The notes: generated by a model not told the origin, from the letters alone. A stretch of 64,000 bases of DNA from Dehalococcoidia bacterium (GCA_963662435.1 OY759598.1:712507-776506), one strand, 5' to 3'. Shown: positions 3,365 to 62,038, counted from the first letter of the stretch. Numbers and translations are program-made.

Positions 3365-3660
3365 GATGTAATCCCTTTCGAGGGATTACATCGAGAGGCC
3401 CACTGTAATGCAATGGGGGCGTACAGGGAATCACGTTTTGAGACAAGTTGTACTTCAGGGCCGATGCGAACCTGAAACAGGGTGAAATCACCCTCCTACA
3501 GGACGTAAGCGGGGAACACCTTTTGTCAGGGGCCGGTTGCGGCCGGCTGGTACATCAGTCGTAGCTGAGAGTGTCCATGTTGTACCACCCGGACAAGGGT
3601 CTGGTGTGTACATGAACCGTAGCTGAGGGTGTACATGTTGTACACAGGGAGACGGGACGG
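3365..3660 (+). repeat. Structured leader, copy D, of the HTH/coiled-coil gene family
   Basis: Perfect 12-bp stem with TTCG loop (GATGTAATCCCT ttcg AGGGATTACATC, 3365-3392). Shares CTACAGGACG..GAACAC(C)TTTTGTCAGGGGCCGGTTGC with the leaders at 24.1, 48.6 and 50.9 kb. Two 38-39-nt direct repeats (3550-3588, 3608-3645) lie just upstream of the ATG. Confidence 0.6.
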
Positions 3661-6457: not shown

Positions 6458-6969
6458 GTGCGCCGCGTAACACGGCATAGGATACCCGACTCAATCGGGA
6501 AGAACTCGGAGAAAGTTCTTGGGCCAACCGACCTACCTCAAGGCGAAAGCTAAGGGGGAAAACAGCATGTCGGTAAAGCGGCTACAGTCCCAAAGCGTTG
6601 TAGGACTGGTTCCGCAAGGCCCGCGCGATACGGTGAAAGCTAAACTGCCTCAACCCCAGCCCCCAGACGGTGACTCAGCACACCCGCCGGTAGAACGCTT
6701 GTAACCCGGCGCCACTCATTGCCCTGGTCTGATGAAGTTACCAATGCAACTCCGATGAGTGAACGATGGCCAATGCGGTCATTCAAGGGGACGAACGGGG
6801 CACCTACAGTCGCGCTAGATACGTCCTATGTCGAAGGAACGCGGGATGGCCTACGGGGGGAGACCCCTATGGTCACGGAGTCCTCGTAGTAGTCCGAGCC
6901 GGGGAAAGCCCGGCACATGGCGAAGGAGGACAGGTGTCAACGACGAACAAACACAGAGAGGTATGCAGA

Positions 6970-8742
6970 ATGCAACAAGCCGAAACTGTACTGAACGTCA
7001 TACGCGAACGCGGAGAACGAGGATTGCCGCTGGAGAACATCTATCGGCTGCTTTACAACCGGAACCTTTACCTGCGGGCCTACGGACGTATCTACTCAAA
7101 CCAGGGGGCTACGACCAAGGGAGTCACCGCAGAGACCGTGGACGGTATGTCACTGGCGAAAATCGACCGCATCATCGAAGCCTTGCGCTACGAGCGGTTC
7201 AGGTGGACGCCGGTGCGACGGGTCAACATTCCCAAGCCTAACGGCAAGACCCGCGCCCTGGGCCTACCGACGTGGACGGACAAGCTGCTGCAAGAGGTCA
7301 TTCGGATGATTCTGGAAGCCTACTACGAGCCGCAGTTCTCCGACCGCTCCCACGGCTTTCGGCCCGGTCGGGGGTGCCACACCGCCTTGGGCAACGTGAC
7401 CACCCACTGGACCGGTGTCCGCTGGTTCGTCGAGGGAGACATCAAAGGGTGCTTTGACAACATCGACCACGATGTCCTGTTGTCGGTGCTCGGCGAGAAG
7501 CTCCACGACAACCGATTCCTACGCCTGCTCAAGTACCTACTGAAGGCGGGCTACGTCGAGGATTGGAAGTATGGCCGCACGCTGAGCGGTACACCGCAAG
7601 GCGGCATCGTCAGCCCCATCCTCTCCAACGTTTACCTAGACCGGTTGGACAAGTACGTCGAGAACATGCTCATACCAGCCCACACCGATGGCTCAGACCG
7701 GAGAGACAACCGCGAGTACACACGTTTGCTGAAACAGGCGGCTTACCAGAGGAAACGGGGGAACCACGCCAAGGCACTGCAACTGCGCAAGCAAATGCAA
7801 CAACTGCCGTCACGCGACCCCTACGACCCTAGTTACCGCCGACTGCGGTACGTGCGCTACGCGGACGACTTCGTGCTGGGTTTCATCGGGCCAAAGGCCG
7901 AAGCCGAGCAGATAAAGGAGTCCTTGGAAACATTCCTGCGCGACTCACTCAAGCTGGAGCTATCCAGGGAGAAAACTCTCATAACCCACGCCACCAGCCA
8001 GGCGGCGCGGTTCCTCGGCTACGAACTTGTAAACCAGCAGGCCCACGACCAGTTCGACCAACGGGGTCGGCGCAAGGTCAATGGCCGCATTGGACTACGA
8101 GTTCCCGCCAAAGTCATCGAACAACACTGCCAAGCCTACATGAAAAACGGCAAACCGATTCACCGCAGCATGCTGATCCACGACGAGGACTACTCCATTG
8201 TGGAACAGTATCAGTCGGAGTTCCGGGGAGTCGTCGAGTACTACAAGCTCGCCATGAACGTCTCCCATTTCGGGAGACTGCAATGGATCATGGAGTGGTC
8301 GCTCGCCAAGACCCTTGCGGCCAAACACAAGACCACGTGCCGGAAGGTGTTTCGGAGCTACAAGAGCTCCGTCCCAACCGACCACGGGCCACGTAAATGC
8401 CTCAAGGTCATCAAGGAGCAGGGCAATGGGAAACCCCCAAAGGTGACGCAGTTCGGTGGCATACCCCTGAAGCGGAATCGGCAGGCAGTCCTCGTAGACC
8501 AGCAGCCTCAGCGGTACAGGACTGACCGCAACGAGCTTATCAAACGGCTCCTAGCGGACAAATGCGAGATGTGCGACTCAACGGTGAAGGTAGAAGTTCA
8601 CCACATCCGCGCACTTCGCGACCTGAACGTGAAAGGCCAACGGGAAAAGCCCAAGTGGGTTCAAATCATGGCGGCGCGAAAACGCAAGACCCTCGCGGTC
8701 TGCCGGACGTGTCACATGGACATCCACCACGGGCGAAAGTAA
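6970..8742 (+). CDS. Group II intron reverse transcriptase/maturase with a C-terminal HNH endonuclease
   Basis: Motifs: MQQAETVLNVIRERG..RLLYNRNLYLRAY..TAETVDGMS..IPKPNGKTRALGLPTWTDKLLQE..SHGFRPGRGCHTAL..YVRYADDFVLGF (YADD), then CEMCDS..VHHIRAL..CRTCHMDIHHG (HNH). Confidence 0.9.
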   Translation: MQQAETVLNVIRERGERGLPLENIYRLLYNRNLYLRAYGRIYSNQGATTKGVTAETVDGMSLAKIDRIIEALRYERFRWTPVRRVNIPKPNGKTRALGLPTWTDKLLQEVIRMILEAYYEPQFSDRSHGFRPGRGCHTALGNVTTHWTGVRWFVEGDIKGCFDNIDHDVLLSVLGEKLHDNRFLRLLKYLLKAGYVEDWKYGRTLSGTPQGGIVSPILSNVYLDRLDKYVENMLIPAHTDGSDRRDNREYTRLLKQAAYQRKRGNHAKALQLRKQMQQLPSRDPYDPSYRRLRYVRYADDFVLGFIGPKAEAEQIKESLETFLRDSLKLELSREKTLITHATSQAARFLGYELVNQQAHDQFDQRGRRKVNGRIGLRVPAKVIEQHCQAYMKNGKPIHRSMLIHDEDYSIVEQYQSEFRGVVEYYKLAMNVSHFGRLQWIMEWSLAKTLAAKHKTTCRKVFRSYKSSVPTDHGPRKCLKVIKEQGNGKPPKVTQFGGIPLKRNRQAVLVDQQPQRYRTDRNELIKRLLADKCEMCDSTVKVEVHHIRALRDLNVKGQREKPKWVQIMAARKRKTLAVCRTCHMDIHHGRK

Positions 8743-8856
8743 TCCGCGCAAGCAAAAGTAGGTAGTGTCAGACCCCAAACAATTGAATACGGCCCTTACG
8801 AAGCAATTCCTCAACCTGATAAACTAGCCAGCCATCATGACTGGAGGTTGAGGCCG

Positions 8857-9231
8857 ATGCCCAGAGTGACCGTGCTGACTCTCGTCTCCCTCCTGACCAT
8901 TGCATGTGGTCAGGTCTCTAATCCTTCAGCCCTAGACTTCACGGAACGCACGGCCGAATACGAGGCCCTAGTTGAAGACTTCAACGACCATTGGCGTCTA
9001 GAAAGCAGGATGTGGGCGAGATGGACAACTGCGCACATCGATAGGGATTTCCGCATCCCCGAGACGTGCAAAGAAACTCTGGCGCAGGCGCAAGAGCGAC
9101 ATACGGTATTGAACGACGCCATGCTTTTAGCCAGCCTCGACGGAAACAGGCGTGAAGCCTATGACCTGTTGGGGAAGAAGATCGCCCAGCTAAAGGAACT
9201 TGACGGTGACCTGAAACAAGGCTGCCGCTAG
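8857..9231 (+). CDS. Lipoprotein-like small protein encoded inside intron domain IV, downstream of the RT ORF
   Basis: GGAGG (8840-8844) precedes ATG 8857. Signal/lipobox-like MPRVTVLTLVSLLTIAC-GQ. Local GC is lower than in the flanking intron. Lies between the RT stop (8742) and domain V (9361). Confidence 0.5.
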   Translation: MPRVTVLTLVSLLTIACGQVSNPSALDFTERTAEYEALVEDFNDHWRLESRMWARWTTAHIDRDFRIPETCKETLAQAQERHTVLNDAMLLASLDGNRREAYDLLGKKIAQLKELDGDLKQGCR

Positions 9232-9360
9232 GAACAGTCGACACCGACCTCTTGTGCATCCTCACGCAACCGCATCACTAGAAATGCACTGCGCATCATA
9301 ACACGTGGTGCCCTTAGGGTACCGCGCCTACCTGACGACACTACCCACACCGACACTAGA

Positions 9361-9394
9361 GAGCCGGATGCGGTGAAAGCCGCACGTCCGGTTC
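9361..9394 (+). ncRNA. Group II intron domain V
   Basis: GAGCCGGATGCGGTGAAAGCCGCACGTCCGGTTC matches the canonical 34-nt domain V hairpin (AGC triad, GAAA-type loop, 2-nt bulge). Confidence 0.85.
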
Positions 9395-9457
9395 GGAGGG
9401 GGGCCGACGGAAAAGTGCCCTGAACGCTCAGGGTAACTCGCCGGCGGCCTACCCTAC

Positions 9458-21781: not shown

Positions 21782-23012
21782 CGGGCTGCCCCTCGCTGCT
21801 TGTGTCGGGGGTCATTATAGCCTCTGATGCCATCGAGCCGCGCAGCTCCATCGCCTGCCTTGTCCGGTCGAGTTCCGTCGCCAGCAGTTCCTCGTCTGGC
21901 AGGGTGATCCGGTACTCCCCGGCCATAACAGTATTTGGCAAGCCCTCAAGAGCGTACCGGGCGAGGGCCTCGTCCTTCTCGGAGCACAGGATAAGTCCGA
22001 CGGGCGGGTTCTCGCCCTCGCGGACCCAGTGCTCCCGCGCGTAGTTGAGGTAGAAGTGCATCTGGCCGGCGTCAGCGTGGGTGAACGCCCCTATCTTCAG
22101 GTCGATGACCACGAGACATCGCAGGCCCCGGTGATAGAACAGCAGGTCCACCCTGTACCACTGGCCGCCGACTCGGAGCCTCTTCTGCCTTCCGATGAAG
22201 CAGAAGTCGTCTCCCAATTCCATGAGGAAGGTCTCCAGGTGCCGGATGAGCGCGTCTTCGAGATCGCTCTCCGAGTACTCGTCCTTGAGGTCGAGGAACT
22301 CCAGAACGAAGGGGTCCTTGACTTGCTCCTCGGGCCGCACGAGGTCCTTGGGGCGGTGTGTCCGCCCACTCGTCAACATGGTGGCTTTGTTCTTCGAGAG
22401 GGCGGTGCGCTCGTAGAACTGGGAGCCGATCTGCCGGTTCAGTTGGCGGACCGACCATCCTGCCCGCAACGCCTCCGCCTCGTAGAACCGGCGGGCGCTC
22501 TCATCCCTGACTGACAGCAGCCTGACGTAAGCCGACCAGGGCAACGGAAAGGCAGCCAGAAGGTCGTCGAAGCCCACCTCGGTAGAAGTAGATTCAGAAT
22601 CTCCAGACGGCGTCTGGAGAATAGGCAGGTGAGGGTGCTGAGACAATTTGCCAGACAGTGTCTGGAGAATCTTGTCCGGCGGATGGGAGAGGTAGAACAG
22701 GCGCATGTTGTAGATGTTCTGAATGGAGAAGCCCCGGCCGAACTGCCCGGTCAGGTCCTCCGCCAGCCTCTCGATGAGCGCCGATCCGTACTCGGCCCGC
22801 TCTTCACCCGACTGCTCGGACTCGACGATGCGACGTCCTATCAGCCAGTACGCGGCGGTCATGGCGGCGTTCACCGAGCGGGCGGCCGACTCCCTGGCCG
22901 CGTCGATGATCCTCGACACGTCTCCGAAGACGGCCTCGTAAGGGGCGTCCTGGCTCAGAGCCGAACGCCCCGGCGATGGCTGATTACGAATGGAGGACGA
23001 CTCGGACCGCAT
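21774..23012 (-). CDS. DUF1016/YhcG-type PD-(D/E)XK nuclease
   Basis: WSAYVRLLSV..ARRFYEAEALRAGWSVRQLNRQI..FVLEFLDLKDEYSESDLEDALI..LGDDFCFIGRQKRLRVGGQWYRVDLLFYHRGLRCLVVIDLKIG. Confidence 0.8.
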   Translation of the reverse strand: MRSESSSIRNQPSPGRSALSQDAPYEAVFGDVSRIIDAARESAARSVNAAMTAAYWLIGRRIVESEQSGEERAEYGSALIERLAEDLTGQFGRGFSIQNIYNMRLFYLSHPPDKILQTLSGKLSQHPHLPILQTPSGDSESTSTEVGFDDLLAAFPLPWSAYVRLLSVRDESARRFYEAEALRAGWSVRQLNRQIGSQFYERTALSKNKATMLTSGRTHRPKDLVRPEEQVKDPFVLEFLDLKDEYSESDLEDALIRHLETFLMELGDDFCFIGRQKRLRVGGQWYRVDLLFYHRGLRCLVVIDLKIGAFTHADAGQMHFYLNYAREHWVREGENPPVGLILCSEKDEALARYALEGLPNTVMAGEYRITLPDEELLATELDRTRQAMELRGSMASEAIMTPDTSSEGQPGG

Positions 23013-23239
23013 CAGGATTCCGCCTCCAGGTGGTCGCTCACGTGCCGGTCGTCCGGGGACGAGTCCTTCTCGTCCTCCGCCTGCCCGTCACCGGCTGAGG
23101 ACCCGAGCAGCAACGTAAAGAGGCGACGCAGCCTATCCTCCGCATCGGGTGCGGGCCTGGAGATGACCCTGATCTCTCCAAACTCGGAGAAGTCCTCCTG
23201 AGGCTTCATTTGCCCGTTCTGTCTGCTCTTGTCCTTCAT
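23012..23239 (-). CDS. Small conserved protein (75 aa), first gene of the leftward recombinase operon
   Basis: MKDKSRQNGQ..DFSEFGEIRVISRPAPDAEDRLRRLFTLLLG. Paralogs at 50563-50811 and (decayed) 48229-48543. Confidence 0.55.
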   Translation of the reverse strand: MKDKSRQNGQMKPQEDFSEFGEIRVISRPAPDAEDRLRRLFTLLLGSSAGDGQAEDEKDSSPDDRHVSDHLEAES

Positions 23240-23445
23240 ATCTCTCTATGCCACCGGTCTCGCAGCGGTTCGCACGCAGGCCGTGCGCTCACGCCTTCGG
23301 CCCCATCGGAGGCTCCCGCCTCCTCTCCGATGGGGTCGTCCGTCTTCCATTGAGTCTGAGGAGTTGGGAGGCGAAATATCATGGTCCGTGAGGGGGGCAC
23401 GGGGCCGTGCCCCCCTCACGGGGACTCGACTCTGTGAATGGCCGG

Positions 23446-23614
23446 ATGTGACGTCGTACCCGTGTACAAGGATTAGCGTCAGTTCCCAAAAGGGAAGTCG
23501 AGGGCTGTTTTGAACCTGAAATAGGTGAGGAAAAGGGAAGTCGGGGCCGTTGTTGCGAGCACTTTGAGGTAAGGGCTGGTTCACCGGCTGGGTGCGAGAA
23601 TTCCCTTTTGGGAA
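23446..23614. repeat. Non-coding module U1, with a palindrome pair TTCCCAAAAGGGAA / TTCCCTTTTGGGAA
   Basis: Palindromes at 23483-23496 and 23601-23614 (118 bp apart) flank the conserved core GCGAGCACTTTGAGGTAAGGGCTGGTTCACCGGCTGG. Confidence 0.75.
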
Positions 23615-23724
23615 GTGGCCCAAGACCGGGCGCTCAGGGCCGGTGGCAGCTAGATCGGAGCCGCGTGGGAGGAGCTGTCTTCCATGGGACCGTGTGAGGC
23701 GGTCAGGGGCATCTTCGAAGGCCA

Positions 23725-23893
23725 ATGTGATGTCATACCCGTGTACAGGGATTTGCGTCGATTGACTAAAGTCAATTGGGGGGCAAGTTCCTACCTGAAT
23801 CAAACGGCTATGGGGGAGGTCGGAGCGGTTTCTGCGAGCACTTCGAGGTAAGTGCTGGTTCACTGGCTGGAGACGAGGATTGACAAAAGTCAA
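23725..23893. repeat. Non-coding module U2, with a palindrome pair TTGACTAAAGTCAA / TTGACAAAAGTCAA
   Basis: Every landmark is offset 279 bp from U1. Palindromes at 23762-23775 and 23880-23893 (118 bp apart). The core is the same, but the palindrome half-sites are swapped (TTCCC to TTGAC). Confidence 0.75.
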
Positions 23894-24130
23894 TCGGACA
23901 TCTGTGCCACATCGGAGCGAGCGATTGAACGTGGGGGGTGGAAACCGGCGTAGACAACCCCCTACCGGACAGTCCTCGACGGGACTTGGGACCAGGGGCA
24001 TGAGCGTTCCGGCCTGCTGTCTGGCTCCGCTGGGGGATCGTCGGACGGTCGATGGGACTCCCACGGCTTCGCCTCCTCGTCGATGGGGTCGTGTTGTCTG
24101 CCATCGAGTCTGGAGGGTCGGGAAGCCGAG

Positions 24131-24471
24131 CGTTATCCCTCGGAAGGGACTACACGGGCGTAGTGACTTTGAGGGGACTACACCGGTGTAGTCCCCTGCA
24201 GGGGATTACGACCGACGGTCTGATCTGATGTCATGGTTCGACGAGGCGGCCCAGCTTGGCCCAGCGTTTGTGCATCGAATGGCTGTCAAGGGGCTGTACA
24301 GGGAAATGGAACTTCGGGTAGAAGCGGACTTATTGGGCCATTTAGCTTCGGTAAGTTGCAGGTTGCACGGTGTAGAGGCCCCAAAAGCGAACACTTTATG
24401 TCAGGGGCTGGTTGCAGGGCAAAGCGCCTCAAGTGTGCAAGGCTGGGCCGCCCCCTATTGGAGGTGTTGAG
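24131..24471 (+). repeat. Structured leader, copy A
   Basis: Hairpin ATCCCT cgga AGGGA; ACTAC..GTAGT; a perfect 24-bp palindrome GGGGACTACACCGGTGTAGTCCCC (24172-24195) overlapping CCCCTGCAGGGG (24192-24203); GGGATTAC; GCTGTACAGGGAAATGG; AAGTTGCAGGTTGCA; GAACACTTTATGTCAGGGGCTGGTTGC. Confidence 0.65.
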
Positions 24472-24981
24472 ATGACGGGAGAGGCGACGGAGAGCTACGG
24501 CAGTGCAGAGGCTGAACCCCGGGATGAGCAGTCCGACCTCAAGTGGGCGGTGGAGTGGCTGGTGAAGGAGAAGGGGCAGCGCCGCGCGGCGAAGGTCCTG
24601 GGGGTGAACAGGAAGACCGTGGCCCTGGCTCTGCGCAGGGAGCGGCTGACGAGCAGGATGAATCACGCAGTCCAGAGGTATCTCTACGGTCCGCGTGGCT
24701 CTGAGGGGCGTCAGGAGATGCCGCTGGACGAAATTGAGTCGCGGATCAGCTCTCTGGCGGAGTCGGTGGACGAGATCGATGACCTGATCGAGGCACTGGC
24801 CCTGCGGGTGGAGGCATTGGAGGAGGAGTGGGCGCAGGGACGGGCGGAAAGCGGCGACGAGGCCGATGCCGATGGCGGCGATATGTCGAGGACCGGTGAA
24901 AAAGAAAAAGAGGATGAACTCGAAGAGTTGCCGGAGCCTGAGCAGGCCGGACGGCGGTTTGGTCGGTTGTGGCGGCGCTAG
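24472..24981 (+). CDS. HTH plus coiled-coil/acidic protein (169 aa), family member
   Basis: GGAGG upstream of ATG 24472. LKWAVEWLVKEKGQRRAAKVLGVNRKTVALALRRERL, then a coiled coil and an acidic tract; ends GRLWRR. Confidence 0.65.
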   Translation: MTGEATESYGSAEAEPRDEQSDLKWAVEWLVKEKGQRRAAKVLGVNRKTVALALRRERLTSRMNHAVQRYLYGPRGSEGRQEMPLDEIESRISSLAESVDEIDDLIEALALRVEALEEEWAQGRAESGDEADADGGDMSRTGEKEKEDELEELPEPEQAGRRFGRLWRR

Positions 24982-25184
24982 GTCGGACGCCGTAGGCGAA
25001 TCCCCAAGAGCATCTCTCTGTAGCAGGGCGGCCGGGTTCCATCCCAGGGTTGACGCAGATGTGGCGGACAACTGGTTGTGTAGGAAAAGCCCCTACAGGA
25101 GTCGCCGGCATGGCCACGGTAGGTCTCCCACCTGTGCAGGAAGCGTGGAATCTACCAACAGATTGCACAGGGAGGTGGAAGCAA

Positions 25185-25925
25185 ATGAAACGGAATGGAT
25201 CAGACATCGAAGGCAGCATAGCCTTTGAAAGCACACACGAACGGCAGCTCATGACGCTGCTGCAAGAGATGGTGCGGGAGAAGGGCCGTGGTGGCGCGGC
25301 GCGGGTGCTGGAGATCGACCCCCGCACGGTGGCCGCGTGCATGAAGAAGGGGAGGCTGTCCTGGCGGGTGAGGGAGGCGTTGGAGAGGGCAATTCAGTAT
25401 GGGGCGGGCTCCGCCGCCGCCGAACAGCGGGAGCGCAACGACCAGCTGGAGGACCGAATCAACAGATTGGAGGAGAAACTTCAAACCGGCATCGAAGAGC
25501 TGGCAGGGGAACTCAGGAGACGTCAGAGGATACATGCCCGGGACCTTCATCTGGTCCAAGCGCGAGTGGCGATCCTGACGCAAAGCCTTCTGGGTTCGGG
25601 GACGGAAACTCCCACAGGCGATGAGAGTGGAGTTTCCCCGCCGACGAGACGTGGTCCACTCTGGTTGCTCAAGGGGCCCGGCCCGGTCGACATGACAGAC
25701 CTGGTCTTCAAGTGGCGGCAGGCGCTGGCCGAGTACCTGGCCGCCGAGGAGCGGCTGTGCGAGGGCATGGATAAGAACATGAAGGCGATCCTTCGTGATG
25801 ACAAGAAGGCTGAAGGTCCCGTCGAGCCTCGCGCCCCCAGAGCGGCTCTGCGGTCGACCCTGCGGTCGAAACGGAATCGCACCCGATCCGGGACGGCCGA
25901 GAGCGCTCAGACCGGGATAGGATAA
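25185..25925 (+). CDS. HTH plus coiled-coil protein (246 aa), family member
   Basis: GGAGGTGG upstream of ATG 25185. LMTLLQEMVREKGRGGAARVLEIDPRTVAACMKKGRLSWRVREALERAIQYG, then a coiled coil. Confidence 0.65.
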   Translation: MKRNGSDIEGSIAFESTHERQLMTLLQEMVREKGRGGAARVLEIDPRTVAACMKKGRLSWRVREALERAIQYGAGSAAAEQRERNDQLEDRINRLEEKLQTGIEELAGELRRRQRIHARDLHLVQARVAILTQSLLGSGTETPTGDESGVSPPTRRGPLWLLKGPGPVDMTDLVFKWRQALAEYLAAEERLCEGMDKNMKAILRDDKKAEGPVEPRAPRAALRSTLRSKRNRTRSGTAESAQTGIG

Positions 25926-26094
25926 TCACGAAGTCGCGGGCAGGGACGGCTCAATGGCTGTCATCAACGGCTGAGCCGGGCGTCCGGTTCACCCCCACTG
26001 GGTCTCGTCCCGTCAAGTATCCGTGTTAAATGTCAAGTTCTAGTTCTGCCTTGAAACGGACTGATCAGGCGGTAAGTAGCACCCAGGGCCTTCC

Positions 26095-26560
26095 TTAGCG
26101 GGCAACGGCGTTGAGCTGCAGGAGCGGCTTGCGCATGACCGCCACCACGGAGACGTTGCCCTGCTTGCCGCGCTGACGCAGGCGCTGATAGAAGCAGCGC
26201 ATCTCGTTGTCGTGGCGGATCACCGCCCACGCACATACGTACAGGGATCGGCGCACCAGGCCGCGGCCGCCCCTGATGCCGCGTCTGCCTCGCTTCTGTC
26301 CACTGTCCCTCGACCAGGGAGCCAGCCCCACCAGGGAGGTGAGGGCCTTGCCGGCCCACTGTCCGAGTTCGGGCAGATGCGCGACCAGGACCGCCGCCGT
26401 CACCGGACCTATTCCAGGTACGGTGCGGTATAGAGCGGCCCGCCGCCCCGTTGGAGCGCTCCTTTGCAATGCCGCCTGATATGCCTTGTCCAAACCAGCG
26501 ATTTCCTTCTCGAGCCATGAGATGTGGCACTTGGTGGGCTAGAGGGGACTGTACTGCGAA
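26095..26560 (-). pseudogene. IS110-family transposase, C-terminal fragment only
   Basis: ..ISWLEKEIAGLDKAYQAAL..LYRTVPGIGPVTAAVLVAHLPELGQ..LVGLAPWSRDSGQKRGRRGIRGGRGLVRRSLYVCAWAVIRHD..FYQRLRQRGK. The N-terminal DEDD domain is absent and stops occur upstream. Confidence 0.75.
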
Positions 26561-42483: not shown

Positions 42484-43964
42484 TTAGCGGATGGCGGGGG
42501 AGGTTTGGAGTGATGGGGAGTGAAGCGGAGCGCCGCTGAAGATAGCGCAGAGCCGATCCACCACGGATTGGTCGTCGCCATTGCGCTCCAACGTCCTGAT
42601 TACGCTGGTGAAAGCCGAGAACACATCGGCCCCCTTCTCGTTCTTCGAGCAGTGTGACACCTTCCGCGCGATCACCGCCCCACGAAACTCTCGCTCAGCC
42701 CGGTTGTTGGTCGGCTCAATGCTCGGATCGTCCAGGAAGGGAAGCGCAGCAGGCTGCCCCGGTCATCGTGCCAGCACAACTCGTTCTGCAGCCGGTAGTT
42801 GTCCGCATCCGCAATCGGACGGTCGCGGAGATGATAGCTCATCTGGCGCTTCAACCGCTCGGCCTGCACACCAAAGTCGACAGCCTCACCTCGATGATAT
42901 GCCTCCCGCAACTCCATCGCCTCTCGCAGAAGGCCGCTCAAACGCTTGCCGAAGCTGCGGCCTCTCCCCGTCTTGCTCTTGACCACCTCGCTGATCGAGC
43001 GTAGCACGTGCGCCAGGCACTTCTGCTGTCTCACCTCGGACAGCGCCTGAGCATCGTAACTGCGACCCCGGTCGGTCACCATCACCCCTGTGTAGTCCGC
43101 AGGAACCATCTCGCGCACCTCTTCGTTCCGGTGACGAGCGCGAACCTGATACACCGTCGCCTCTTCTGTCTCGAACGCCATCAGAAACGCCGGCTCGCCT
43201 CCAACTCGCCAGCCCGTGTCGTCGGTGTGGACGACCGGACTCGCTCGCACCGATGTCCGCAGCGTACGGTAGGCGTCACCCACCGCATCGGCACTAAGGC
43301 GCAGCGCGTCCTGGCTGATCGCCCTCTGACTCACTCTCACCCCGGCCAGCGCCCTGAGAACGGCAGGAACCTTCCGTACCGGAACGCCCACCCCATAGTG
43401 GAGCACGTGGGCCGCCGCCATCAGCCGCTTCCCCACTCGGTGGGCGCTGGCCCCGTACTGGTCCTGCGCTATGTCGGGATGCCGCCCTCGCACAGCGTTG
43501 CCGCACGACCGGCACCGGCATACCTGCACACGATACGCCGTTATCTGGGGACGTGGAACCGGCAGAAGGTCGGTCACGTAGGCAAGCCGCACTCCCTCAT
43601 GTTCGAGGACGCCTCCACATCCGGGGCAGGTGTCCCAGGACACTGGCACGTCTACAACCGGCTCGGTGATCTCTTCGGCAGACGGCGGCTTGCGGTAGCT
43701 GAACATCCCCATACCCGGCTTGCGGCCAGGACGCTTGGGCTTGCTGCTGCGCTTGCCCTTGGAGAACGGCGCCGCCTGTCGCTTTCCCGCTCGCTTGGCC
43801 TCGGCGAGTTCCTTATGCAACTCTTCGTTGGCTGCCGTCAACCGCGCGTTCTGCTCTTGAAGCCGCGTCACCAACGCGATAAGCTGATCCCGTTCAGACG
43901 GGGACAAGCTTGTGGAACTGCACACATAGCCAAAGTCTAAACCAGCACCCAGCGCTCCCCGCAA
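42484..43964 (-). mobile_element. IS66-family transposase gene with a frameshift near 42760 (probably inactive)
   Basis: Leucine-zipper N-terminus; CPGCGG..CRCRSCG zinc motif; DDE region ..VVHTDDTGWRV..VMVTDRGRSY..QKCLAHVLR. The expected ..LLRF(L)DDPSIEPTNNRAEREFRGAVIARKVSHCSKNEKGA.. requires a 1-nt frame change to join ORFs 42672-43964 and 42484-42675. Confidence 0.75.
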
Positions 43965-48543: not shown

Positions 48544-48590
48544 GTCGTACCCATGTGCTGATGCCAGTGTGAGAGGTGGGAGAGCGGAGC

Positions 48591-48930
48591 ATAATCCCTC
48601 GGAAGGGACTACACGGGCGTAGTGACTTTGAGGGGACTACACCGGTGTAGTCACCTGCAGGGGATTACGACCGACGGTCTGATCTGATGTCATGGTTCGA
48701 CGAGGCGGCCCAGCTTGGCCCAGCGTTTGTGCATCGAATGGCTGTCAAGGGGCTGTACAGGGAAATGGAACTTCGGGTAGAAGCGGACTTCCTGGACCAT
48801 TTAGCTTCGGTAAGTTGCAGGTTGCACGGTGTGGAGGCCCCGAAAGCGAACACTTTTTGTCAGGGGCTGGTTGCAGGGCAAAGGGCCTCAAGTGTGCAAG
48901 GCTGGGCCGCCCCCAATTGGAGGTGTTGAG
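48591..48930 (+). repeat. Structured leader, copy B (near-identical to copy A)
   Basis: Same hairpin series. The palindrome is GGGGACTACACCGGTGTAGTCACC at 48632-48655 (one arm mutated). Confidence 0.65.
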
Positions 48931-49440
48931 ATGACGGGAGAAGCGACGGAGAGCAACGGCAGTGCGGAGGCTGAACTCCGGGACGAGCAGTCCGACCTCA
49001 AGTGGGCGGTGGAGTGGCTGGTGAAGGAGAAGGGACAGCGCCGCGCTGCGAAGGCCCTGGGGGTGAACAGGAAGACCGTAGCCCTGGCGCTGCGCAGAGA
49101 GCGGCTGACGGGCAGGATGAATGACGCGGTCCAGAGATATCTCTACGGTGCGCATGGCTCTGAGGGTCGTCAGGAGATGCCGCTGGACGAAATGGAGACG
49201 CGGGTCAGCTCTCTGGCGGAGTCGGTGGACGAGATCGATGACCTGATTGAGGCACTGACCCTGCGGGTGGAGGCATTGGAGGAGGAGTGGGCGCAGGGAC
49301 GGGAGGAAAGTGGCGACGATGCCGATGCCGATGGCGGCGATATGTCGAGGACCGATGAAAAAGAAAAAGAGGATGAACTCGAAGAGTTGCCGGAGCCTGA
49401 GCAGGCCGGACGGCGGTTTGGTCGGTTGTGGTGGCGCTAG
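48931..49440 (+). CDS. HTH plus coiled-coil/acidic protein, copy B
   Basis: High identity by eye to 24472-24981; ends GRLWWR. Confidence 0.6.
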   Translation: MTGEATESNGSAEAELRDEQSDLKWAVEWLVKEKGQRRAAKALGVNRKTVALALRRERLTGRMNDAVQRYLYGAHGSEGRQEMPLDEMETRVSSLAESVDEIDDLIEALTLRVEALEEEWAQGREESGDDADADGGDMSRTDEKEKEDELEELPEPEQAGRRFGRLWWR

Positions 49441-49642
49441 GCCGGACGCCCTCGGCGAGTCCCCAAGGGTATCTCTCTGCGGCAGGGCGGCCGGGTTCCA
49501 TCCCAGGGTTGACGCAGGTGTGACGGACAGCCGATTGTGTTGGAAAGCCCCTACAGGAGTCGACGGCATGACCACGGTAGGTCTCCCACCTGCGCAGGAA
49601 GCGTGGAATCTACCAACAGATCGCACAGGGAGGTGGAAGCGA

Positions 49643-50386
49643 ATGAAACGGAAGAGGTCAGACATTGAAGGCAGCATAGCTGTTGAAAACACACACGAAC
49701 GGCAGCTCATGACGCTGCTGCAAGAGATGGTGCAGGAGAAGGGCCGTGGTGGCGCGGCGCGGGTGCTGGAGATCGACCCCCGCACGGTGGCCGCGTGCAT
49801 GAAGAAAGGGAGGCTGTCCTGGCGGGTGAGGGAGACGTTGGAGAGGGCAATTCAGTATGGGGCGGGCTCTGCCGCCGCCGAACAGCGGGAGCGCAACGAC
49901 CAGCTGGAGGACCGAATCAACAGATTGGAGGAGAAACTTCAAACCGGCATCGAAGAACTGGGGGCAGACCTCAGGGGACGTCAGAGGAAACTTGCCCGGG
50001 ACCTTCATCTGGTCGAAGCGCGAGTGGCGATCCTGACGCAAGGCCTTGAGAGTTCGGGGACGGGAACTCCCACAGACGATGAGAGTGGAGTTCCCCCGCC
50101 GACGAGACGTGGTCCACTCTGGTTGCTCAAGGGGCCCGGCCCGGTCGACATGACAGACCTGGTCTTCAAGTGGCGGCAGGCGCTGGCCGAGTACCTGGCC
50201 GCCGAGGAGCGGCTGTGCGAGGGCATGGACAAGAGCATGATGGCGATCCTTCGTGACGACAAGAGGGCTGAAGCTCCCGTCGAGCCTCGCGCCCCCAGAG
50301 CGGCTCTGCGGTCGACCCTACGGTCGAAGCGGAAGGGTGGTGTTCGTTCATGGACTGCCGAGAGCGCTCAGACGGGGAAGGGGTAA
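49643..50386 (+). CDS. HTH plus coiled-coil protein, copy B (247 aa)
   Basis: GGAGGTGG upstream of ATG 49643. High identity by eye to 25185-25925. Confidence 0.6.
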   Translation: MKRKRSDIEGSIAVENTHERQLMTLLQEMVQEKGRGGAARVLEIDPRTVAACMKKGRLSWRVRETLERAIQYGAGSAAAEQRERNDQLEDRINRLEEKLQTGIEELGADLRGRQRKLARDLHLVEARVAILTQGLESSGTGTPTDDESGVPPPTRRGPLWLLKGPGPVDMTDLVFKWRQALAEYLAAEERLCEGMDKSMMAILRDDKRAEAPVEPRAPRAALRSTLRSKRKGGVRSWTAESAQTGKG

Positions 50387-50399
50387 CCGCGAAGTTGAC

Positions 50400-50588
50400 G
50401 ATGCACCGCCGGATGAGCCAGTACGCGGCAGTCATGGCGGCGTTCACAGACCGGGCAGCTGACTCTCTGGCCGCGTCGATGATCTTCGACACGTCTCCGT
50501 AGACGGCTTGGTACGGGGCGTCTTGACTGAGAACTAAACGCCTCAGCGATGGCTGGTTACGGTTAGAAGGCGTCTCGGACCGCATCAA
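50400..50588 (-). pseudogene. DUF1016/YhcG remnant (first ~62 codons)
   Basis: MRSETPSNRNQPS..LSQDAPYQAVYGDVSKIIDAARESAARSVNAAMTAAYWLIRR compared with the 23012 start. Homology stops about 15 nt from the stop of the convergent gene. Confidence 0.7.
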
Positions 50589-50811
50589 GCTTCCGCCTCC
50601 GGGTGGCCGTCGACCCGACGGTCGTCCTGGGGGACTCCTTCTCCGACTCGACCTGGTGCTCCCTGGCTGAGTGTCCCAGCAGGATCGTGAAGAGGCGGCG
50701 CAGTCTGTCCTCCGCGTCGGGGGCGGGTTTGGAGATGACCCTGACCTTCCCGAACTCGGAGAAGTCCTTTTCGGGCGTCCGTTGCCCGTTCTGCCTGCTT
50801 TTATCGTTCAT
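50563..50811 (-). CDS. Small conserved protein, copy C
   Basis: MNDKSRQNGQRTPEKDFSEFGKVRVISKPAPDAEDRLRRLFTILLG. Confidence 0.5.
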   Translation of the reverse strand: MNDKSRQNGQRTPEKDFSEFGKVRVISKPAPDAEDRLRRLFTILLGHSAREHQVESEKESPRTTVGSTATRRRKLDAVRDAF

Positions 50812-50900
50812 CGCTTTCTTCGACGGACTCGCGTGAGCCCGCATCGGGCCGTCATCGTAGGTGTGTCTGCCGTCGAGTGTGGAGGGTCGGGAAGCCGAGT

Positions 50901-51228
50901 GTTATCCCCTGGAAGGGACTACTTGGGCGTAGTGGCTTTGGGGGGACTACAGCGATGAAGTCTCTTCCGAGGGATTACAGAGTGTCCAGCCGCCGTGATG
51001 TCATGGGGCTGTACAGAGAAACGAGTCTGGTTGCAAGTTGCAGGTCGGGTGGGTTTCAAAGCTGGAACAGGGGGGAGTCGCCCCTTACAGGACGTGAATC
51101 GCGAACACTTTGTGTTAGGGGCCGGTTGCCACGGAATACGCATTGCTCACGTTTGAAATCTGCAAGCTGCAAGCGCTCGAAATCGAGGAAAAGCAGCAAA
51201 GGTCTGCAAGTTGCAGGAGGAGGCGCCG
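50901..51228 (+). repeat. Structured leader, copy C
   Basis: ATCCCC tgga AGGGA hairpin; GGGATTACA; GCTGTACAGAGAAACG; three TGCAAG(T/C)TGCA(G/A)G motifs (about 51033, 51155, 51200); CTTACAGGACGTGAATCGCGAACACTTTGTGTTAGGGGCCGGTTGC. Confidence 0.6.
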
Positions 51229-52098
51229 ATGGAATCTAGCAAGACCGTAGTGACTGAAGGCGGAGGCGCCGAGGAGGAGTACGTCCTCCGGCTCAGGGCA
51301 CTGCTTCACGACCTGGTGCGAAAGAAGGGACGTTTCAAGGCAGCCAATGAGCTGGGGCTTGACCCCAGGACGGTCGGGGCGTGCATGGACGGCGAAGGGA
51401 TGTCGTGGCGGGTCCGAGAGGCGCTGGAGCGGGGACTCCAGGAGGGCGCGGGCTCTCCTGCCGCCCGCCAGCGGAAGCCCAACGATTACTTGGAGCTTCG
51501 CGTGGAGGAGCTGGAGAAGGAGCTTCGCGACGGCCTCAAGGCCGCCAAGGGCGAGATCGAGAAGCTGCGGGAGGACCAGGACCGCAGGTGGGAGTCGTTG
51601 GAGCGGCGGCTCGCACGCGGAGAGGCCAAGCAGGAGAACCCCCAGGAGGCTCCCAGTCCTGCTGACACTCCCAGCGCAACAGGACCGACGCTAGAGGAGG
51701 CCCCGACTGTCACCAAGCCGTCGGCGAAGGACAGGTTCCCGAAGCGGCTGTACCCCGAACTGGTGACGAAGGAGCCTGCTCACGACGACGAGGAGGTCTA
51801 CGGCGAGGCGTGGCCCCTCATCGAGGAGTGGCGCAGGCTGCGGGAGGGCCATGCCAGCGACGGCAAGGGCCTGTCGTGGCTTCGCACCGAAGAGCGCGTC
51901 CGGGAACTGGAGGTTGCCATGCTGGAACGACACGGGCTGACTTTGCCGCCGGAGACGGAGCCGCTGGGTGGCCTCGACCGGAGTTCCCAGCTGAACTGGC
52001 GGAAGGAGACCCTCAACGAAGTTCGGGTGACACGGGCCAGACGGGAGTTACTGTGTTCGGTGCGGCAGGTCCTGACCCTGGGACTGTGGAGGAAGTAG
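51229..52098 (+). CDS. HTH plus coiled-coil protein, copy C (289 aa; ortholog-like to 3661-4509)
   Basis: GGAGGAGG upstream of ATG 51229. LRALLHDLVRKKGRFKAANELGLDPRTVGACMDGEGMSWRVREALERGLQEG ... ELEVAMLERHGLTLPPETEPLGGLDRSSQLNWRKETL..VLTLGLWRK. Confidence 0.65.
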   Translation: MESSKTVVTEGGGAEEEYVLRLRALLHDLVRKKGRFKAANELGLDPRTVGACMDGEGMSWRVREALERGLQEGAGSPAARQRKPNDYLELRVEELEKELRDGLKAAKGEIEKLREDQDRRWESLERRLARGEAKQENPQEAPSPADTPSATGPTLEEAPTVTKPSAKDRFPKRLYPELVTKEPAHDDEEVYGEAWPLIEEWRRLREGHASDGKGLSWLRTEERVRELEVAMLERHGLTLPPETEPLGGLDRSSQLNWRKETLNEVRVTRARRELLCSVRQVLTLGLWRK

Positions 52099-53295: not shown

Positions 53296-53383
53296 CACTG
53301 TTTCGAAGGCAAGCCGTCTATTTTCTTCTAAGAAGTTGTAGGCAACCTCGTGTAGAATAGTGCTTCACAAGAGGAGAGCGGTA

Positions 53384-56300
53384 ATGGCCGGACTGAAGGT
53401 TCTACGTGAGACCTGCGTTCCCAGGGACGAAGTGTTATCCGGGGAATTACGTGACGAGATGTTTGCTGCGAACCTATCCGAGGTTGTGCGCGGCGATGCC
53501 CATGAGACCTATCAAGATCCCGACAAGTTCTTTGCAAACACGTACCTTACCGAGCGTGTCAGGTCCTTCTTGAACGAGGTCGTAGGGCGGCTTTCCGGGA
53601 AGGACAGTACCGCCGCCGCATTCTTTAGGCTCGACACGCCCTTTGGCGGCGGCAAGACGCACACCCTCATCAGCCTCTATCACCTGCTGGCATCGAAGAG
53701 GTCCCCAGATTACCTACGCGCGATGGGAGTGGATCCTGCAGATGTGCCCGATACGGTCAAAGTCGTGACGGTCGTGGGTGGCGACCTGAACCCTGCTGAC
53801 GGTGTAAGGAAAGGGGACTCGGTCGTACATCACATATGGGGCGAGATCGCCTATCAGTTGGGTGGAGAGGAAGGCTACGAGCTTGTACGGAATGCCGACC
53901 GGCAGGTCATCGCCCCGGGACCGCAGTTCCTCGACGCTCTGGCGGACGATTCCCCCATCCTGTTCATGATCGATGAGCCGGCAGAGTACATGCGCAGAAT
54001 GGGGAGCTCCGCAGGCCAGCTTCCCGCGTTTCTGAAAACCCTGTCGGAATGGGCGACGGCCGCAAATCGTCCAAGGGCACTTGTTCTGACGCTGGCCTGG
54101 GGTCATGAGACTCAGCATGGCCAGATGGACGCCTTCAACAAAGAGACGTCGGAATTGGTCGAGAAGCTTGATGAAACGTTCAGGGAAATCCAGTCCGTCG
54201 TAAGCCGTCCGGCCCGTGTGGTGACGCCCTCCCAAAGACAGGACATAGAGCCCATCTTGCGCCGCCGGCTGTTCGAGTCCGTTGATATGAACGCCGCCAC
54301 TCCGACGGCCGACGCCTACTTCTCCGCTCTCCGCGACGCGGCAGGGCGAGACACGCCACTCCCGGCGGACGTTGTGCAGGCTTCGTACCGCAAGCAGATC
54401 GAGGATGCGTATCCGTTCCACCCGTCTTTCATCGAAGTCATGGATGGCAAGCTGGCTACCATTCCGAACTTCCAGCGGACGCGGGGCGCGCTCAGACTGG
54501 TGTCGCGCGTCATCCGACGGATTTGGGAACAGAAGCAAAACGATGCGGCTCTCATCCATCCGTTTAGCGTCGATCTGTCCGATCCCGAGACGGTGGAGGA
54601 ATTGGTCGGCAGGCTCGACCGTTCGGCATACTCCGCAGTAGTCAGCTACGACGTAGCCTCCACTGCCGGGGCCGCGCACGCGCAAGAGATCGACAGAGAC
54701 AGTTTTGCGGGGCATCCGCCATACGCCCAGCGCGTGGCCGTCACCCTACTGCTGCACAGTCTTCCCGACCCTCCCGCCAGGGGCGCCAACCTCAACGAGC
54801 TTTTGGCATCGGTTCTGACTCCGAGTTCCGACTCCGCTCACCTCAGAAAGGCCCTCGAATATCTGTCTAATGAGGCGTGGCATCTCGACTACGAAGGTAC
54901 ACGCTACACCTTTAGGACGGAGCCTTCCCTCAATAAGATTGTTCTTGACGAGACCCTGGCCGTTAGCAGGCACGACGCACGGACTGAGTTGGGTCGGCGG
55001 ATTCGGCAAATTTGGAGGACTGCCGGTCTTGAAGTGCGATACTTCCCCGATGCCACCGAGGACTTGGACGACACCACGAATGGCAAGCTGGTGCTGATGC
55101 ACTGGGACACCGCAGACGTTACGTCTGCCAAGAACGCCACTCCGCCCAAGGTCCAGGAGCTTGCCAACTACAAGGGCGTCCAGCAAGACTTCAGGCGCTA
55201 CAGGAACACACTCTTCTTCCTTGTTGCCGACTCCGACCGAACTGAGGGAATGTTTCAGGCGGCACGTCGCTGGCTGGCGCTCGAGCATCTGGTGCAAAAC
55301 AGGAATCGGATGGACGAGATGAAGTTGAGCACAGAGCACAGAGATCGGTTGAGGAATTGGCATAAGGAAGGTGAACTCAGCGTCAGGGTCGCCATCACAC
55401 GCGCATACCGGCATCTGTTCTATCCCCAAGGTATGGAGCAGAGCAGGACGGCATTCGGACACCATGCCTTAATGATAGATGACCAGGGACACGGAAGGAT
55501 AAATCACACCGAGACCATCCTGAAGGTGCTGGAAGAAGACTTGGAGAAGGTCAAGACCGCTTCGGCCGGGTTGCGCTCGCCGGTCATGGTGAAGCAGGAG
55601 ACGTTTGGGGCCAGCGAGGGCGGTCTGGCGCTCGATATGCTTATGGAGCGGTACGCCGAGCGCCCCAGGCTGCCACTCATCATCGCGCCTACCTATTTTC
55701 AGGAAATCGTGCGTGCGGGCGTCGTGAACAAAACGTGGCTCTACTACGACGCCGTCAAGGACATTGCATACGATACGCTCGAACCGGTCACGGACATCGT
55801 ACTCGATGGTCAGCACATGCTCATGCTTGGTGATGAGGCCGTAAAGCGTGGCGTGCAGGTGTGGGCCCCAACTGCTCAGGGCAAAGGCGAGACCGAACAG
55901 GAGGGTGGCGGCAAGGTTTCGGATGTGGGCACCCCGGGGGAGGGTGTGTCCACATCGCCAGTAAAACTCACAGGCGAAGGCGAGCCCCGAAAGGCTCTTG
56001 CCGACGCGATAGCTAAGGCCAAGGACCAGGGTTGGAAGTCCTTCATTTCGATAGCCCTCGAATGGCAAGGAGAAGACGGAGACACCCACTCGTCCATGAG
56101 TCACCTGCGAACCCTGATGGGACAGACACCTGGCGGCGAGGCGGGCGTAAGTTGCAAGTTGACCTGCGAGTTCGGAGACGGGGGAGTGTTGGATACGAGC
56201 TACACCGGCTCATACGAGCGGTACCGATCCGTGGCCAATACACTTGAGGCCCAGGCATCTCAGGCGAAGAAGGCGTTCGTCAGCATGTCACTGACTCTCG

Positions 56301-56419
56301 GTTTCACGGGCGGTTTGGAAGTCGATGGACAGGAAATCTCCGATCTGCGTGAAGCTCTGGAGCTTGTCTCGCTTGGGCACACCGTCGTCACTGCCAAGCG
56401 GTATGATGGAGACGCCTAA
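53384..56419 (+). CDS. DUF499-type P-loop ATPase (1011 aa)
   Basis: GAGGAG upstream of ATG 53384. LRETCVPRDEVLSGELRDEMFAANLSEVVRGDAHETYQDPDKFFANTYLTERV..FRLDTPFGGGKTHTLISLYHL and ..FMIDEPAEY. This N-terminal pattern is characteristic of DUF499. Confidence 0.75.
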   Translation: MAGLKVLRETCVPRDEVLSGELRDEMFAANLSEVVRGDAHETYQDPDKFFANTYLTERVRSFLNEVVGRLSGKDSTAAAFFRLDTPFGGGKTHTLISLYHLLASKRSPDYLRAMGVDPADVPDTVKVVTVVGGDLNPADGVRKGDSVVHHIWGEIAYQLGGEEGYELVRNADRQVIAPGPQFLDALADDSPILFMIDEPAEYMRRMGSSAGQLPAFLKTLSEWATAANRPRALVLTLAWGHETQHGQMDAFNKETSELVEKLDETFREIQSVVSRPARVVTPSQRQDIEPILRRRLFESVDMNAATPTADAYFSALRDAAGRDTPLPADVVQASYRKQIEDAYPFHPSFIEVMDGKLATIPNFQRTRGALRLVSRVIRRIWEQKQNDAALIHPFSVDLSDPETVEELVGRLDRSAYSAVVSYDVASTAGAAHAQEIDRDSFAGHPPYAQRVAVTLLLHSLPDPPARGANLNELLASVLTPSSDSAHLRKALEYLSNEAWHLDYEGTRYTFRTEPSLNKIVLDETLAVSRHDARTELGRRIRQIWRTAGLEVRYFPDATEDLDDTTNGKLVLMHWDTADVTSAKNATPPKVQELANYKGVQQDFRRYRNTLFFLVADSDRTEGMFQAARRWLALEHLVQNRNRMDEMKLSTEHRDRLRNWHKEGELSVRVAITRAYRHLFYPQGMEQSRTAFGHHALMIDDQGHGRINHTETILKVLEEDLEKVKTASAGLRSPVMVKQETFGASEGGLALDMLMERYAERPRLPLIIAPTYFQEIVRAGVVNKTWLYYDAVKDIAYDTLEPVTDIVLDGQHMLMLGDEAVKRGVQVWAPTAQGKGETEQEGGGKVSDVGTPGEGVSTSPVKLTGEGEPRKALADAIAKAKDQGWKSFISIALEWQGEDGDTHSSMSHLRTLMGQTPGGEAGVSCKLTCEFGDGGVLDTSYTGSYERYRSVANTLEAQASQAKKAFVSMSLTLGFTGGLEVDGQEISDLREALELVSLGHTVVTAKRYDGDA

Positions 56420-58097: not shown

Positions 58098-58107
58098 GAG
58101 AAGACGT

Positions 58108-59117: not shown

Positions 59118-59136
59118 ACCTCAATAAAGGACACCC

Positions 59137-62028: not shown

Positions 62029-62038
62029 GAGGGATGCT

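Follow-up and report, generated by a model that had tools for sequence, protein, structure and literature searches.

A candidate stack of operator cassettes with swapped half-sites in mobile elements of Dehalococcoidia

We analyzed a non-coding gap of 1.23 kb (23240-24471) in a 64,000-nucleotide stretch of DNA from a Dehalococcoidia bacterium (GCA_963662435.1 OY759598.1:712507-776506), hereafter the window, which is a mosaic of mobile-element genes. The gap separates a leftward open reading frame (ORF) of 75 amino acids from rightward paralogous genes. The leftward ORF, p75 (23012-23239, minus strand), is the first gene of a cassette that continues with YhcG/DUF1016 and then a large serine recombinase. 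To the right lie gene1 (24472-24981, plus strand), a 169-amino-acid paralog of a helix-turn-helix (HTH)-like family, and gene2 (25185-25925, plus strand), a 246-amino-acid member of this family to which P0001 is 99% identical. An initial annotation of the window had described 0.9 kb of non-coding DNA at this site; its non-coding character held, but the gap proved to be longer and to contain a third module.

Two of the modules, U1 (23445-23620) and U2 (23725-23899), both on the plus strand, are direct repeats offset by 279 bp, in which the repeat finder returned two blocks of 73% and 82% identity. They share a left box, ATGTGAYGTCRTACCCGTGTACARGGATT (23446-23474 in U1, 23725-23753 in U2), and a core, GCGAGCACTTYGAGGTAAGKGCTGGTTCAC (23555-23591 and 23834-23870), each present in exactly two copies in the window against an expectation of 0, which bears out the pair of offset modules that the initial annotation had proposed. 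Each module also carries two perfect 14-bp palindromes. In U1, site A (TTCCCAAAAGGGAA, 23483-23496, with the form TTCCC-N4-GGGAA) and site B (TTCCCTTTTGGGAA, 23601-23614) are 118 bp apart, and the same distance separates site A (TTGACTAAAGTCAA, 23762-23775, TTGAC-N4-GTCAA) from site B (TTGACAAAAGTCAA, 23880-23893) in U2; the positions, sequences and separations first reported for these palindromes were all correct on re-examination. Perfect palindromes of the 5-N4-5 type numbered nine in 23240-24470, compared with a mean of 1.37 in first-order Markov simulations. Nine were reached in 0 of 2000 simulations, as were two arm types each seen twice, and the paired palindromes of U1 and U2 are far beyond chance. 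Neither the TTCCC nor the TTGAC palindrome has a further copy anywhere in the window.

The third module, U3 (about 24223-24455, plus strand), is more diverged than U1 and U2 and forms the gene-proximal cassette of gene1. It contains TTGCA half-sites as direct heptads (24354-24367) and a core at 24387-24413. In nhmmer searches U3 was recovered with E=2e-10, U1 with E=6e-7 (family profile) and E=6e-38 (array-type profile), and U2 with E=3e-7 and E=3e-33, respectively. Neither the TTCCC-type module U1 nor the TTGAC-type module U2 has a regulator gene after it, and both are referred to here as orphans. Among the loci described below, orthologues of U3 together with a gene1 homolog are present in L014, L042, L043 and L033.

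The minus strand of the gap contains a 272-amino-acid ORF (23246-24064), the only ORF in the region according to the initial annotation, which had judged it non-coding. We looked for a coding-type substitution pattern by comparison with L002, a syntenic reference locus with 91.5% identity across the gap, and found none. Substitutions in the ORF were distributed as 34/26/15 on codon positions 1/2/3, with third positions the least substituted, and those in the flanking YhcG gene as 33/24/81. Because of these counts the ORF, whose substitution pattern is anti-coding, was rejected as a gene. Similarity to the N-terminus of a secreted protein that heads the type IV secretion system (T4SS) operon in intact relatives is limited to its first ~24 codons, suggesting that the ORF start is a remnant of that N-terminus and that the remainder reads through the modules by chance. 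A tblastn search from a related ORF gave matches explained solely by overlap with module DNA. The “genes” of 263-272 amino acids called over this region in public assemblies are artefacts.

To place the modules in a wider context, we collected relatives of gene2. Its product has 134 relatives in the database, none annotated, and a scan of one genome per species gave 246 relatives, often several per genome. The best 80 of these 246 genome relatives were fetched and compared, with later relatives of the TTCCC-associated clade added (in the range L205-L216); all loci kept came from metagenome-assembled genomes (MAGs) of Dehalococcoidia or Chloroflexota. In nhmmer searches, a module homologous to U1 and U2 was found upstream of almost all 80 HTH-gene loci, on the strand of the gene and ~180-330 bp before its start codon. 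The module is a non-coding element with a conserved core of ~135-150 bp, which consists of GTGTACA, a CTACAGGA box (GGGAGGTCGG in array-type modules) and GARCACTT...GTTC, in this order. Invariant short blocks stand between variable stretches: GTACA is present in 81 of 81 copies, the CTACAGGA box in 66, and GARC-N17-19-GTTC in 48. Of the two palindromic sites, A is internal to the core and B is located at the 3' edge of the core.

Stacked modules without genes of their own occur elsewhere as well, with three in each of L005, L009 and L082 and two in L008/10/11 and L051/58/66, so that two or three modules stand ahead of a single gene in these loci. The stretch 23317-23618, from a remnant termed X1 through U1, is 81% identical to L207 2068-2367, which lies just upstream of a regulator gene of the TTCCC-associated clade, and 23725-24121 (U2 and the DNA following it) aligns with the distal cassettes of L205 (71%) and L209 (70%). 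U1 and U2 are thus copies of the widespread control region of the HTH-like gene family without the gene that follows it, a point missed in the initial annotation.

The arms of sites A and B draw on a small vocabulary, TTCCC/GGGAA, TTGAC/GTCAA, TTGCA/TGCAA and TTGTA/TACAA. In 0.95 Mb of fetched DNA, 37 matched sites had a 4-bp spacer, compared with 0-4 for any other spacer length. The site AGTTCCCAAAAGGGAAGT occupies the module position of U1 site A in L005, L172, L205-L208 and L216, and one-mismatch or spacer variants of it do so in L008, L010, L011 and L209. The counterpart of U2 site A reads TTGACGAATGTCAA in L005. Of 19 modules, 16 have sites A and B spaced by 116-118 bp (outliers of 105 and 130 bp), and the DNA between the two sites is likewise conserved. 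The motif at site A also recurs downstream within the same element (Wilcoxon p=7e-4, 25 clusters). Half-sites are used in more than one arrangement: TTGCA forms direct 7-bp repeats in the window (24354-24367 and 51031-51043) and inverted ones in L005 and L051, and five hybrid sites within modules each join two different valid half-sites, such as TTCCC-GAAA-TACAA and TTGCA-AAAA-GGGAA in L205.

Comparison with L002 separates arms from spacers. All eight arms in U1 and U2 (40 positions) are unchanged, which at 8.5% divergence has a probability of about 0.03 by our own arithmetic, while 4 of 16 spacer positions differ (Fisher p=0.005). In L002, U2 site A reads TTGACTTACGTCAA, with the spacer changed and the arms kept, U2 site B reads TTGACAATAGTCAA, and the arms of U1 site B are the same. 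L002 further has a 27-bp deletion (window 23669-23695) that falls exactly between U1 and U2, and the 150 bp surrounding it (23600-23750), with 3 substitutions, are less diverged than any other part of the gap.

This conservation bears on the possibility that U1 and U2 are inert debris of recombination between related elements, in which the palindromes were inherited and are no longer used. Such an origin would suit a mosaic locus with pseudogene remnants (X1, a second copy X2, and the start of the 272-amino-acid ORF), the lack of a gene downstream of U1 and U2, the three changes in orphan-site arms among L008, L010 and L011, which are 96-99% identical, and gene1, in which substitutions relative to L002 show no codon-position bias. 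However, the arms have been kept while spacers changed, the intergenic DNA is 91.5% identical whereas YhcG third positions differ at 81 sites (~20%), and stacked orphan modules recur in many genomes. We regard inert debris as an unlikely explanation.

A different alternative, which the initial annotation had raised for RNA, is that the palindromes act as hairpins of a small RNA or 5' leader, or of the single-stranded DNA that is transferred, with the arm differences between U1 and U2 being compensatory. In its favor, a stem of 5 bp closed by a 4-nt loop, frequently A-rich or GAAA, could form at each site, every module is found upstream of the start codon on the strand of the gene, and L011 shows a two-sided change, CTCCC...GGGAG. 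Structure searches did not agree with this. Rfam returned no relevant match on either strand, and in 22800-24800 all scores were far below the gathering threshold (E of at least 0.13), the sole gathering-level match in the window being a group II intron at 9359-9457. RNAalifold predicted 0 pairs from 81 distinct module copies, and single-sequence folds of U1, U2 and U3 were not unusual (z = -1.3, -2.4 and 0.0). When alignment columns were scanned for stacked covariation, the one pairing to emerge was that of a G-run with a C-run, which is the only long-range candidate; it rests on one clade-level change and scores equally well when slid by 1-3 columns toward the 5' side, so that it is not register-specific. 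Long-range pairing between sites A and B was ruled out by the spacer changes in L002 and also by L005 and L009, whose mixed modules make it impossible.

The sites themselves also behave differently from stems. Their arms are a few discrete words that show no drift. The five hybrid sites cannot form hairpins, losing the pairing while keeping valid half-sites, and one-mismatch sites have no strand-consistent G-U bias, with three fitting each strand and two fitting neither. A small set of words, spacers free to vary, hybrid sites and mixed orientations are predicted if a protein recognizes the half-sites, and would not be expected of drifting RNA stems. A hairpin function is, in our assessment, distinctly improbable.

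The initial annotation had instead put first a specificity swap, in which both sites of a module change half-site together. Much of this reading stood, as the arms are discrete, the spacers free and the site type follows the regulator clade, but strictly paired change is not general. Same-type pairs hold in the window, L002, L008/10/11, L172, L205-L209 and L216, whereas mixed pairs occur in L005 (TTCCC with a TTGCA-like site, and TTGAC with TTGCA) and L009 (TTCCC-like with TTGCA-like), in addition to the hybrid sites. Independent variation of the sites, which the annotation had named as evidence against its proposal, was observed in part.

The type of the gene-proximal site tracks the clade of the adjacent HTH-like protein. 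GTTGCA sites accompany the clade ...DPRTVASCMKTGRLSW..., ATGACA sites the clade ...DQRTVAECARTGQLSRR..., and TTGTRCC sites the clade ...DRRTVTTCATTGRLSRRAR.... In the clade with GVN(H/Y)KTL(T/A)RAE..GEITGRM, AGTTCCCAAAAGGGAAGT or a one-mismatch form of it is found at both A and B, 105-117 bp apart. Five distinct loci of this TTCCC clade (L172/L208, L205/206, L207, L209 and L216) have the sites upstream of the gene. The clearest case is L172, whose protein (...GVNHKTLTRAEESG...) led to the other loci of the clade and whose gene is preceded, at ~130 bp, by a TTCCC/TTCCC module. L210 has degenerate versions of the sites, and L214 and L215, clade variants with a changed helix, have TTGTA/TGCAA sites. 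In L205, L206, L207, L208, L210 and L216, gene calling often splits a TTCCC-clade gene into two short, overlapping genes with junk C-termini, apparently owing to frameshifts in MAGs from low-coverage long reads or to real decay; the full-length forms have the family tail ...LTLGLWRK at their end.

An AlphaFold model of gene2 (pLDDT 72) has a short helical N-terminal domain, a 60-residue helix and a C-terminal helical part. The top Foldseek matches of the N-terminal domain, weak and all to HTH folds of the Cro, C-protein or XRE kind, included N15 Cro, C.Esp1396I, SinR and XRE proteins, from which we infer that the adjacent proteins may be HTH regulators. Two other proteins were considered as binders and rejected. 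The gene for a ribbon-helix-helix (RHH) protein, a candidate for the TTCCC sites, is present in L008-L011 and some others, and tblastn searches of the window, L002, L005 and L172 returned no such gene; the family is also absent from the gene calls of L205-L216, loci that lay outside the tblastn search. For the p75 protein, the sites occur in L207, L210 and L215 even though these loci lack it.

In intact relatives, the cassette is located between two divergent operons. The leftward operon begins with the secreted protein, followed by TrbL_3 and the T4SS pilin (T4SS_pilin), and the rightward one contains the regulator, small ORFs and a DnaG-type primase. Other copies adjoin serine recombinases, an RHH gene or defence cargo (type I restriction-modification (R-M), Thoeris), and in L203 the regulator family heads an island of type I R-M and Thoeris. 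The host elements are integrative and of conjugative type, carrying a T4SS.

Such neighbors also suit sites of transfer or replication (an origin of transfer (oriT), a single-strand initiation site or a replication origin), whose repeats would be recognized by a relaxase, primase or initiator. T4SS genes and the primase flank the cassette in intact relatives, inverted repeats adjoin conserved sequence blocks, and L002 has a Replic_Relax gene ~4 kb away. Inverted repeats are present, but a relaxase or initiator gene is not a regular neighbor of the cassette, and we recognized no nic consensus. Nor were the features of an iteron origin found: the repeat unit is 279 bp, the repeat list holds no run of short tandem iterons, GC content in 1-kb windows is about 0.60 with no AT-rich dip at this resolution, and no Rep family occurs among the neighbors. 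Moreover, two to three cassettes stand in tandem and one precedes every paralog, unlike a single oriT or oriV, and the site type follows the clade of the HTH-like gene. We consider a transfer or replication site very unlikely.

Taken as a whole, the gap probably holds three homologous repressor-operator cassettes, stacked one after another and swapped in specificity, belonging to T4SS-carrying integrative elements specific to Dehalococcoidia. Each cassette would control a regulator gene, and in intact elements the divergent conjugation operon as well. From the comparison of sequences we infer that its two dyad sites are putative operators bound by a dimer of the cassette's own regulator. As expected of operators, the dyad sites have conserved arms and free spacers, and in relatives they precede the cognate regulator and change type with it, U1 and U2 being without such a gene. 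Regulator clades would differ in their half-sites (TTCCC, TTGAC, TTGCA, TTGTA, and others such as ATGACA and TTGTRCC), forming immunity-like groups, and the long helix might allow the proteins to assemble further and to loop the DNA between sites ~11 turns apart. Recombination between the conserved cores may have stacked the TTCCC and TTGAC cassettes, both of which would have lost their gene in this way, ahead of the TTGCA cassette of gene1, with U3 presumably still driving gene1 and gene2. Sister elements could supply regulators that bind the orphan operators in trans, which would either tie local expression to co-resident elements or titrate the regulators.

Several observations weigh against a stack of repressor-operator cassettes. 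The association between clade and site type could reflect linkage by descent alone, and no gene cognate to TTGAC was found in the fetched loci. The proposed regulators match no Pfam, PHROGs or NCBIfam family, a sequence and profile search of the PDB gave coiled-coil noise only, and the Foldseek matches are weak (E of at least 0.25). In the largest subfamily the site-A motif scarcely recurs downstream (2.8 vs 2.05), the promoter scan detected no sigma-70-like promoter, and the arm changes among L008, L010 and L011 affect orphan sites in closely similar loci.

Another possibility is that the orphan cassettes serve as inter-element sensors, with operators kept for the regulators of different co-resident elements, so that expression of the recombinase module, gene1 and gene2 would be set by the sister elements present. 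L209, which carries a TTCCC-clade gene, shares the assembly accession ERZ25069711 with the window, on another contig (ctg17118, the window being on ctg17307) with a similar coverage label, and a TTCCC-clade regulator may be co-resident with the window's element. We hold the sensor role only tentatively and give it a modest chance.

Beyond the palindromic sites, the modules and their surroundings contain other recurrent elements. A CCCCTACAGGA box lies on the strand of the gene at 25083-25095 in the window and just upstream of start codons in L205-L210, L215 and L216; most modules (66/81) contain it once, TTCCC-clade start codons have a tandem pair of it 25-55 nt ahead of them, and it may be a promoter element, a second binding site or an RNA signal. 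GA[AG]C-N17-19-GTTC, seen in 48 of 81 modules (for example at window 51101-51129; alignment A4 columns 135-160), reads TGAAC-N17-CGTT in the main subfamily, which we take to resemble the -35/-10 pair of an extracytoplasmic function (ECF) sigma factor, and it could equally be a wide inverted repeat. The terminator scan found one T-run hairpin, upstream of main-family modules only. Scans of wider data sets added little. The pattern GTNNTACCCGTGTACA was too unspecific for a metagenome scan, with 119 of 120 loci failing the module profile and only L172 matching it, and a scan of viral contigs with the TTGAC site and its flanks gave 3 matches, none fitting the profile. A literature search on Dehalococcoidia conjugative elements found nothing relevant.

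Between X1 and U1 lies a perfect 17-bp inverted repeat, CCGTGAGGGGGGCACGG / CCGTGCCCCCCTCACGG (23386-23421). The array-type modules of L005, L008, L205 and L207 are preceded by an equivalent repeat, GTGAGGGGG...CCCCCTCAC. In several genomes, a long G/C-rich inverted repeat with a variable loop, GTGAGGGGGG...CCCCCCTCAC, is located 20-40 nt 5' of array-type modules, at 23386-23421 in the window, 4655-4707 in L005 and about 2139-2173 in L207. X1 (23300-23375) is a remnant of the upstream and 5' region of the divergent gene and is repeated as X2 (24054-24130), neither having an assigned strand; the X2 region (24021-24122) aligns with L207 2019-2120. Upstream of U3 are nested GGGACTACA hairpin repeats (24131-24214), with copies at 48592-48669 and about 50890-50978.

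Profile searches with nhmmer identified six modules in the window, starting at 3409, 23445, 23725, 24282, 48741 and 50994, of which those outside the gap span 3409-3540, 48741-48883 and 50994-51135. A relaxed core pattern gave three extra copies, at 24391, 48850 and 51105. By self-BLAST, 24120-25934, which covers U3, gene1 and gene2, is duplicated at 48578-50395 with 93.7% identity, and 22900-23247 is copied at 50473-50819. Directly after the duplication comes a third control locus (50473-52098) with a p75 paralog (50632-50811), X, hairpins, the module at 50994-51135 and an HTH-like gene (51229-52098), so that three related control loci stand within one window. The p75 protein had no Pfam, PHROG or NCBIfam match; its homologs adjoin module arrays in L002, L048 and L014/42/43, and a 75-amino-acid gene is called in L205 and L209. 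For gene1, which has homologs in L014, L033, L042 and L043 and no Pfam or NCBIfam match, substitutions relative to L002 fall 14/13/13 on codon positions without a coding signature, and the ORF is nonetheless kept.

The remaining genes of the window include a group II intron (6766-9457) with a reverse transcriptase/maturase/HNH ORF at 6766-8742 and an Intron_gpII match (domains V/VI) at 9359-9457. Downstream of the third control locus lies defence-type cargo (53360-63613), comprising a DUF499 ATPase, an IrrE/ImmA-like peptidase fused to HTH_3, a DUF1156 methyltransferase and an AAA_15/AbiEii-like ATPase. An IS110-family transposase fragment (26095-26493; Transposase_20 only, 132 amino acids) and an IS66-family transposase (42672-43964) represent further mobile-element decay around the locus.

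Known control systems offer partial parallels. In lambdoid and other temperate phages, CI and Cro form immunity regions with OR/OL operators, in which three 17-bp sites are adjacent. The cassette family likewise has homologous control regions between divergent operons, related elements with different dyad sites matched to their own putative HTH repressor, sites in several copies (cooperative in phages), and a regulator N-terminal domain with weak Cro-like and XRE-like fold matches. In contrast, the sites here are 14-bp 5-N4-5 pairs ~117 bp apart around a conserved core, the host element bears a T4SS and is no phage, the regulator has a long helix and an extra C-terminal domain with no detectable family, and a single locus can hold a stack of orphan cassettes whose specificity is foreign to it.

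IncP plasmids are globally regulated by KorA, KorB and TrbA, and Streptomyces plasmids have kil-kor systems. Similar to these, a conjugative element here has several palindromic operator classes, with one control region that would answer more than one repressor. However, the parallel lies in arrangement and not in a sequence or family relation, the operator classes seem to be those of paralogous regulators of different co-resident elements instead of the regulon of one plasmid, and within the window the TTCCC and TTGAC palindromes are confined to the gap. The Inc18 plasmid pSM19035 has heptad arrays for the omega repressor, and controller (C) proteins of R-M systems act at C-boxes. The use of TTGCA half-sites in both direct and inverted form is reminiscent of both, and the regulator gene heading defence and R-M cargo in L203, together with C.Esp1396I among the weak fold matches, recalls C-protein systems. 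Unlike omega, an RHH gene occurs only in some relatives and not in the window, and unlike C proteins, the proteins here are much larger; the likeness is drawn from arrangement and not from C-box sequence.

The cassette, the protein family and the site vocabulary appear to be undescribed, to judge from the literature search on conjugative elements. They define a widespread cis-regulatory cassette of mobile elements in uncultured Dehalococcoidia, together with its putative family of regulators, and they provide concrete operator-regulator pairs as testable predictions, the clearest being AGTTCCCAAAAGGGAAGT with the GVNHKTLTRAEESGEITGRM clade. The half-site swaps on a constant scaffold are also a natural data set for the evolution of DNA-binding specificity. 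If orphan cassettes are bound in trans, related elements within one genome would read each other's regulators. If they further serve as sensors, the operator array would amount to an “address book” through which cross-immunity or a hierarchy among competing elements in one genome may be established.

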